Below, one piece after another: positions 9,449-10,087 of a stretch of DNA of 64,000 nucleotides. Each line of letters starts with the position of its first letter. The first letter of the stretch is position 1. A program made the translations under genes and the position numbers. Source of the DNA: a virus (Duplodnaviria > Caudoviricetes); IMG/VR virus record IMGVR_UViG_3300013121_000036, positions 32,001 through 96,000 of that record; one strand, written 5' to 3'. The notes beneath the pieces were generated by a model that was not told the DNA's origin, searched no databases, and worked only from the letters and a program-made list of their open reading frames with translations.

Positions 9449-10087
9449 ATGGACGCAGCGACAAGGCTGAAAGAAGCCGAGGCGAAGCTCAAGTCGACGG
9501 CGCTGACCGGAGACACGGCTTGGCTCAGGATCTCTGACATCATCGTTCCCATCATCGACGCCTGGTCTGACGAGTACACAGCCGCCTGCGGCCTTGACTC
9601 AAGCTCGTGGGCGGCGAGGGTGACCGGCAGGCCCAGGGCCGCCACGATGGCCAGAAAGAGGAAAGACGCCATGGAGAAGGTCGAGGCCGCGGTTCGAGCG
9701 GGGCCAAGGGACCGCGACGTCATCAGGTACAAGATGGGAGACAAGGTCATCATGTACCTTGCGTACACGATGCCTGGACCATCAATGGAGAAAGCCATCC
9801 TTGCCGTCATCCACGAGACGGTGGCAAGGGACGCCATCCTCGACTATGGGACGGCCAGGAGGATAGCTCGCATCGCAACTGGCATGAAGGACGGCCAGAG
9901 CGTGGCCAAGATCCGCCTCTCGCGACTTGAAGAGTGGCTCGATGGCGAGTTCGACAGGTGGATGTCGGACGCCATCAAGGCAGCAAAGTCCGGCAACGGA
10001 TTTGACAAGAAGCTCTCCGCCCCGCCAGGATGTCGCAAGCCATCGCTCAAGAAGACCATGTCGGCGCTTGGCTTCGACGCCGAATAA
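9449..10087 (+). CDS. hypothetical protein upstream of the guide-RNA array
   Basis: 212-aa ORF, TAA stop. Confidence 0.7.
   Translation: MDAATRLKEAEAKLKSTALTGDTAWLRISDIIVPIIDAWSDEYTAACGLDSSSWAARVTGRPRAATMARKRKDAMEKVEAAVRAGPRDRDVIRYKMGDKVIMYLAYTMPGPSMEKAILAVIHETVARDAILDYGTARRIARIATGMKDGQSVAKIRLSRLEEWLDGEFDRWMSDAIKAAKSGNGFDKKLSAPPGCRKPSLKKTMSALGFDAE

Follow-up and report, generated by a model that had tools for sequence, protein, structure and literature searches.

As described by Faure et al. (2025, Science, PMC12045711), dual-repeat TIGR arrays are composed of two alternating repeats of 8-12 nt with 9-nt spacers, giving a unit of about 36 nt. There, TasA is presented as generally lacking clear associations with other proteins, and parB-like genes, named tasParB, are reported to be operonic with tasA, sometimes with the array between the two genes. 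The annotation of tasParB is based on HHpred matches to ParB domains, including those of ParB-like CTPases, and its function was not tested there. A full-text literature search for TasParB returned only Faure et al. 2025. In a more recent preprint, Xu et al. (2026, 10.64898/2026.09.09.750476) reported that TasA alone represses transcription; in the available text of this preprint the term "ParB" is absent, and a discussion of accessory genes was not found. For nuclease-free TasA, the only accessory reported is ParB-like.

The locus compared here with those systems is found in a window of 64,000 nucleotides, the whole stretch of DNA analysed, which corresponds to bases 32001-96000 of a 110,758-bp virus record with direct terminal repeats. 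Near-identical DNA is present in public runs of 10 studies, mostly of activated sludge and wastewater (4 of the 20 rows with such DNA may be the source sample), and no similar phage was found when the region was compared with GenBank phages at the DNA level. In this 110.8-kb activated-sludge phage, a gene for a 212-aa protein (ORF212), a TIGR array and tasA, possibly followed by orf148, would form a single transcription unit on the + strand, with ORF212 as its first gene. The upstream neighbour of ORF212 is a GH25 lysin gene on the opposite strand (Pfam E 9.9e-18).

The dual-repeat TIGR array (10089-10777, + strand) contains 19 units with a period of 35-36 nt, as seen by its repeats, their spacing and the autocorrelation. 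Each unit consists of an edge-like repeat, (A)ACGAGC, about 9 nt, a loop-like repeat, (R)GATGNNTCC, and again about 9 nt, and the 19 loop repeats, of the ATGNNTCC type, follow one another at 35-36 nt up to position 10742. Within the 690-nt array the motif ATGNNTC[CA] was counted 17 times (24.6 per kb), compared with 25 times (0.39 per kb) for the remaining 63.3 kb, so that the loop motif is 63-fold denser here than elsewhere in the window, and the autocorrelation at lag 35 exceeds that of 500 out of 500 shuffles. Tandem Repeats Finder reported nothing on the array, which is expected for repeats this short, and no Rfam family lies over it. Having alternating repeats, spacers of about 9 nt, 19 units and an adjacent Nop-domain gene, it is a dual-repeat TIGR array in the published sense. 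Its first edge-like repeat, ACCGAGC, starts at 10089, only 1 nt past the ORF212 stop codon, in agreement with the preliminary description, which had the array starting at that codon. The truncated end repeats adjoin the ORF212 stop codon on one side and the tasA ribosome site on the other, the last truncated repeat supplying this site itself. Regarding self-targeting, the 110.8-kb genome was scanned for spacer pairs, taken as 8-mers no more than 30 nt from each other; the single pair returned, with 28 nt between its members on the same strand, is at chance level.

Downstream of the array, tasA (10778-11851, + strand) encodes a nuclease-free Nop-domain Tas of 357 aa, with the ribosome site GAGGAAAAG before its ATG. 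The protein matches the NCBIfam family NF052498, TIGR_Tas_endo (E 1.9e-18, profile positions 5-213 of 215), with 67 bits, below the curated 100, and phrog_4285 (E 1.7e-11), while a three-row TasA profile matches the PDB chains 9mty_A (3.1e-13) and 21kl_A, TasH (2.5e-8). No nuclease family was detected in TasA by Pfam at E<=0.1, and the approximately 35-75 residues before the Tas match are too few for a nuclease domain. With its Tas/Nop homology and no HNH or RuvC domain, this is a solo-Nop TasA, and the nuclease-less Tas announced earlier behind the array is thereby confirmed. Its nearest relatives are 40% and 35% identical, no relatives were found in IMG/VR and GTDB contigs, and it is not among the entries listed of Table S1 of Faure et al. 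2025, in the available portion of that table. An extended TasA of 416 aa was also considered, as the open frame 10601-11851 runs through the last five array units, and it was rejected since the N-termini of the homologues align at the ATG at 10778.

TasA also has a distant relative in Ralstonia phage phiRSL1, where ORF034 (26% identity, E 4e-4) is annotated as "transposase". Behind this gene lies an unannotated array of about 1.4 kb with a period of about 36 nt (NC_010811.2, 14218-15642; L005, 4565-5989), built of AGTCAYCC-like and AGTGNNCC-like repeats. Judging from these letters, this cultured jumbo phage appears to carry a TIGR-TasA locus.

The next gene, orf148 (11848-12294, + strand, 148 aa), has an ATG overlapping the tasA stop codon (ATGA), so it is probably translationally coupled to tasA and may belong to the same unit as ORF212, the array and tasA. 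No family was found for orf148 in Pfam, PHROGs, NCBIfam and PADLOC. Downstream of the TIGR unit, two cysteine-rich ORFs follow on the + strand (12291-13109, 272 aa, and 13088-13963, 291 aa), both matching phrog_323 ("transcriptional regulator, D5-like"); the first matches HNH-endonuclease PHROGs as well. The two ORFs resemble a duplicated pair of regulators.

ORF212 (9449-10087, + strand) extends from the ATG at 9449 to the TAA at 10085-10087, and a start further upstream is precluded by an in-frame TAG at 9437-9439. Its GC3 of 0.78 compares with 0.72-0.85 for the neighbouring genes, and its remote relatives and confident fold (pLDDT 83.7) indicate that the 212-aa frame is a real gene, as had been claimed. 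The promoter claimed in front of it stands in part. Reading the sequence, promoter-like hexamers can be recognized on the + strand at 9414-9442, TTGACC (9414-9419) and, after 17 nt, TAGGTT (9437-9442), forming the sole such element present, which ends 6 nt before the ATG. It is weak, however, as the -10 hexamer matches at only 3 of 6 positions, and it is consequently absent from a consensus scan that required at least 4 of 6 in each hexamer. No Shine-Dalgarno sequence precedes the ATG, and this, together with the short distance to the hexamers, suggests that the ORF212 mRNA may be leaderless if the promoter is real. On the + strand, no terminator-like site was found within 8600-12400, so that the earlier statement of no evident terminator is upheld; the consensus scan showed no promoter-like site inside the array, and the RNA of the ORF212/array junction has no stable fold, being no better than shuffles (z 0.42).

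The co-transcription of ORF212 with the guide array, also asserted in the preliminary description, agrees with this anatomy and with contigs from RNA libraries, and is consistent with both rather than proven by them. These contigs bridge 9850-10412, from ORF212 into the array, and 10239-10813, from the array into tasA, as one transcript would. They are strandless, and they cover the lysin gene on the opposite strand as well as, for X17, all 30 bins, which makes DNA carry-over in the RNA libraries possible.

Comparison between strains separates the array from its flanking genes. A DNA contig of another study (X5) shows 8 differences over 8600-10331, a stretch that includes all of ORF212, while 20 of 240 places differ in the array at 10353-10592, and 76 nt are replaced by 41 other letters at 10592-10669. 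In the RNA-library contigs of X17 and X18, exactly 70 nt, or two units, are missing (10583-10654). The substitutions in the array cluster in the spacer positions 10520-10548. On our reading, it is whole units and spacer pairs that turn over in the array, and ORF212 and tasA stay conserved.

ORF212 belongs to a small orphan family. No family in Pfam, PHROGs, NCBIfam or PADLOC matches it, and thus no catalytic family does. An exhaustive HMMER search of 1.84 billion representatives returned, at E<=0.001, the relatives P0005 (1e-20), P0006 (3e-7) and P0007 (1.7e-5), and a metagenome scan added L001, the one confirmed out of 280 pattern matches, bringing the family to about five 90% clusters. Homologues were found neither in IMG/VR, searched with ORF212 alone and with an alignment (A2), nor in GTDB genome contigs (A4), nor in GenBank phages by tblastn with ORF212 and P0008. 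A word-seeded search of 5.8 billion proteins with ORF212 recovered only the query itself, and its profile version gave three proteins, all in known clusters. In the ESM Atlas no named family was matched, the scores of 0.90-0.92 being at chance level there. Two kinds of match were discarded: the only IMG/VR match of A4 (L002), which falls inside a 999-aa structural ORF and is false, and the Salactin matches, which are weak (Pfam E 0.041; NCBIfam E 0.0064, with 15.6 bits against a cut-off of 400).

In the five-member alignment, L7, R27, V33, W39, A46, G48, W54, A65, P109 and P192 are invariant, and in the four members other than L001 so are L49 and G60. The best-conserved stretch of the family holds W39, A46, G48, L49, W54 and G60, and would fit a helix-turn-helix (HTH) pattern.

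The AlphaFold models, built on five family sequences, are all-helical for both ORF212 and P0006 (pLDDT 89.3 for the latter), with no beta strands and no enzyme fold among the long matches. The only recurring long structure matches of both models are the DNA-binding domains of ParB, KorB and Noc, with scores in the range where, according to the tool, a common arrangement of helices may account for the match. At E<=0.001, Foldseek returned nothing from the PDB and BFVD; below this threshold, the rows of highest probability for P0006 are Noc, Spo0J and ParB, and ParB-named viral models take ranks 2, 20 and 26 in BFVD. The structural alignment with Spo0J starts at chain residue 98-100, past the ParB N-terminal domain. 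The first approximately 140 residues of ORF212 would resemble the DNA-binding domain of ParB/Spo0J/KorB/Noc, followed by a long helix and a basic tail. Regarding the sequences, none of the five family members matches a ParB family in Pfam at E<=10, the ParB/Srx N-terminal domain (PF02195) is absent from all five in the same library, and a PDB search with the family profile at E<=10 gave no ParB chain. The structural models suggest that ORF212, a helical protein of HTH type, may be kin to the ParB DNA-binding domain and may bind DNA.

The phage also encodes, outside the window and 14 kb upstream, a 676-aa ORF (G000:C1:26466-28496; L003, 790-2820) with weak ParB_N (E 8.7e-5) and HTH_ParB (E 4e-4) signals, which indicates a ParB-like protein separate from ORF212. 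No profile similarity was found between this ORF and ORF212, and hhalign of the ORF212 family against its HTH region gave a probability of 0.2.

The association with an array recurs in L001, a 3.8-kb phage-like contig carrying a 166-aa homologue that is 21% identical to ORF212 and ends at 3614. From about 3620 to the contig end at 3812, thus within 10 nt of the stop codon of the homologue, there is a dual-repeat array with a period of 38 nt and an autocorrelation (0.59) above that of 500 of 500 shuffles. Its repeats, AAC(G/T)AG(T/C)GA and AACGAA(T/C)GCGA, are unlike those of the window. No tas gene is visible in L001, as the contig ends inside the array. An array therefore adjoins the gene in two of the two family members with downstream DNA, a count that covers ORF212 and L001, the clusters P0005, P0006 and P0007-9 not being placed on DNA. 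The longest contig that encodes P0005 measures 95,272 bp, that of P0006 measures 7,266 bp, and P0008 is encoded by 10 contigs of at most 15,563 bp. A gene-neighbourhood check had been proposed in the preliminary description, with homologues unlinked to TIGR loci as the outcome against it, and the only other placeable member instead abuts an array. On the same contig, two small overlapping ORFs (122 and 112 aa, 2414-3117) precede the homologue, and the other strand carries a 582-aa gene resembling a phage head protease or scaffold, which makes the L001 locus viral as well.

Our preferred reading, tentative and short of probable, takes ORF212 as a divergent, CTPase-less, TasParB-like DNA-binding partner or regulator. 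It would be a stripped-down counterpart of tasParB, a DNA-binding accessory produced along with the guide RNAs and TasA, and neither a nuclease nor another enzyme. The TasA ribonucleoprotein itself binds guide-matched DNA and blocks transcription, and ORF212 would act on DNA with this complex or control it. The earlier proposal of a partner thus keeps the backing of the junction in L001, seen in both testable members, and of the tasParB precedent, the linkage coming from one extra locus. Co-folding of TasA (A1) with ORF212 (A5) gave an ipSAE of 0.00 in two runs without controls and is evidence neither way.

A less probable explanation, and a doubtful one, is that ORF212 only regulates its own operon, as an HTH repressor or activator at the divergent promoter region (about 9367-9448) that controls how much tigRNA and TasA is made but does not act on TasA or its targets. 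Its place at the head of the unit, immediately downstream of the sole promoter-like element, would suit such a role, as would the possibly leaderless start, which occurs in some phage repressors, and the HTH-like conserved core of the family. KorB, among the fold matches, is by its entry title a transcriptional repressor, and TasA, according to the available text of the 2026 preprint (10.64898/2026.09.09.750476), represses without a helper. However, no pair of inverted repeats that could serve as an operator was found within 9330-9470. Moreover, the L001 homologue overlaps an upstream ORF, so that another gene comes first there, and the homologue adjoins the array all the same, indicating that the conserved feature is the array junction and not proximity to a promoter.

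That junction also bears on a third explanation, which we consider unlikely: ORF212 would be an unrelated phage early gene sharing read-through, and the array of L001 would be a coincidence, TIGR arrays inserting after genes. The linkage is known from two loci (n=2), and as no homologue was found in IMG/VR, GenBank phages and GTDB genomes, linkage statistics are not possible; the general lack of clear protein associations of TasA stated by Faure et al. (PMC12045711) points the same way. Against it, the genes of two proteins that are only 21% identical both end within 10 nt of an array, and these arrays differ in repeats and period; in addition, the fold class of ORF212 matches that of the sole accessory reported for tasA operons.

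The preliminary description had gone further and offered ORF212 as a candidate effector for a Tas lacking a nuclease, and an enzyme such as a nuclease or methylase, brought by TasA to guide-matched DNA, would fit that lack, but it is highly improbable and this part of the claim is not supported, given that none of the four libraries (Pfam, PHROG, NCBIfam, PADLOC) gives a catalytic family, the long matches of the all-helical models include no enzyme fold, the residues invariant in the family (W, G, A, P, L and R) contain no set of acidic residues or histidines, and TasA represses unaided in the available text of the preprint (10.64898/2026.09.09.750476), so that no missing effector is required.

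The partner-or-regulator reading can be carried to a bolder form, to which we give little credence: ORF212 might found a second, sequence-orphan class of TIGR-TasA accessories, consisting of a ParB DNA-binding domain minus the CTPase clamp module, translated from the transcript that carries the guides and cooperating physically with the TasA ribonucleoprotein on target DNA. Such a protein could, for instance, stabilise or spread the repressive complex, or tether the phage genome to sites specified by the guides. If this were true, TasA systems would be two-protein machines more often than sequence searches suggest. Should the linkage hold in more loci, it would separate whether the task of the helper requires the CTP-driven clamping of ParB or site binding alone, and it would define a compact three-part system of helper, array and TasA in about 2.4 kb; should it fail, ORF212 would be another phage orphan.

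Compared with the described systems, the locus follows the same operon logic, with a protein that cannot be named by sequence and that would keep only the DNA-binding part of the ParB architecture. The possible resemblance in fold is to the HTH domains of ParB/Spo0J, Noc and KorB (PDB 1vz0, 6s6h, 6y93, 1r71, 8qa8 and 1zx4); unlike these proteins, ORF212 has no CTP-binding N-terminal domain and no sequence similarity to them, and no parS-like site was identified. As in FpTasA-type dual-repeat TIGR-TasA systems, two short repeats alternate, the spacer pairs are of about 9 nt, the period is about 36 nt and a solo-Nop Tas lies next to the array; a difference is that the array lies here between an upstream gene and tasA, with zero spacing at either end. 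Like tasParB, with which it is compared by description, ORF212 is a small gene of DNA-binding type that shares an operon with a dual-repeat array and a tasA free of nuclease: the ORF212 stop codon, 1 nt, the array and the tasA ribosome site succeed each other with no terminator-like site on the + strand between them. Unlike tasParB, again by description, it bears no detectable ParB sequence signal, and the ParB/Srx CTPase-type N-terminal domain implied for tasParB is not present (no PF02195, all-helical). ORF212 fits a known operon type, from which it differs by being undetectable by sequence and by lacking the CTPase module.
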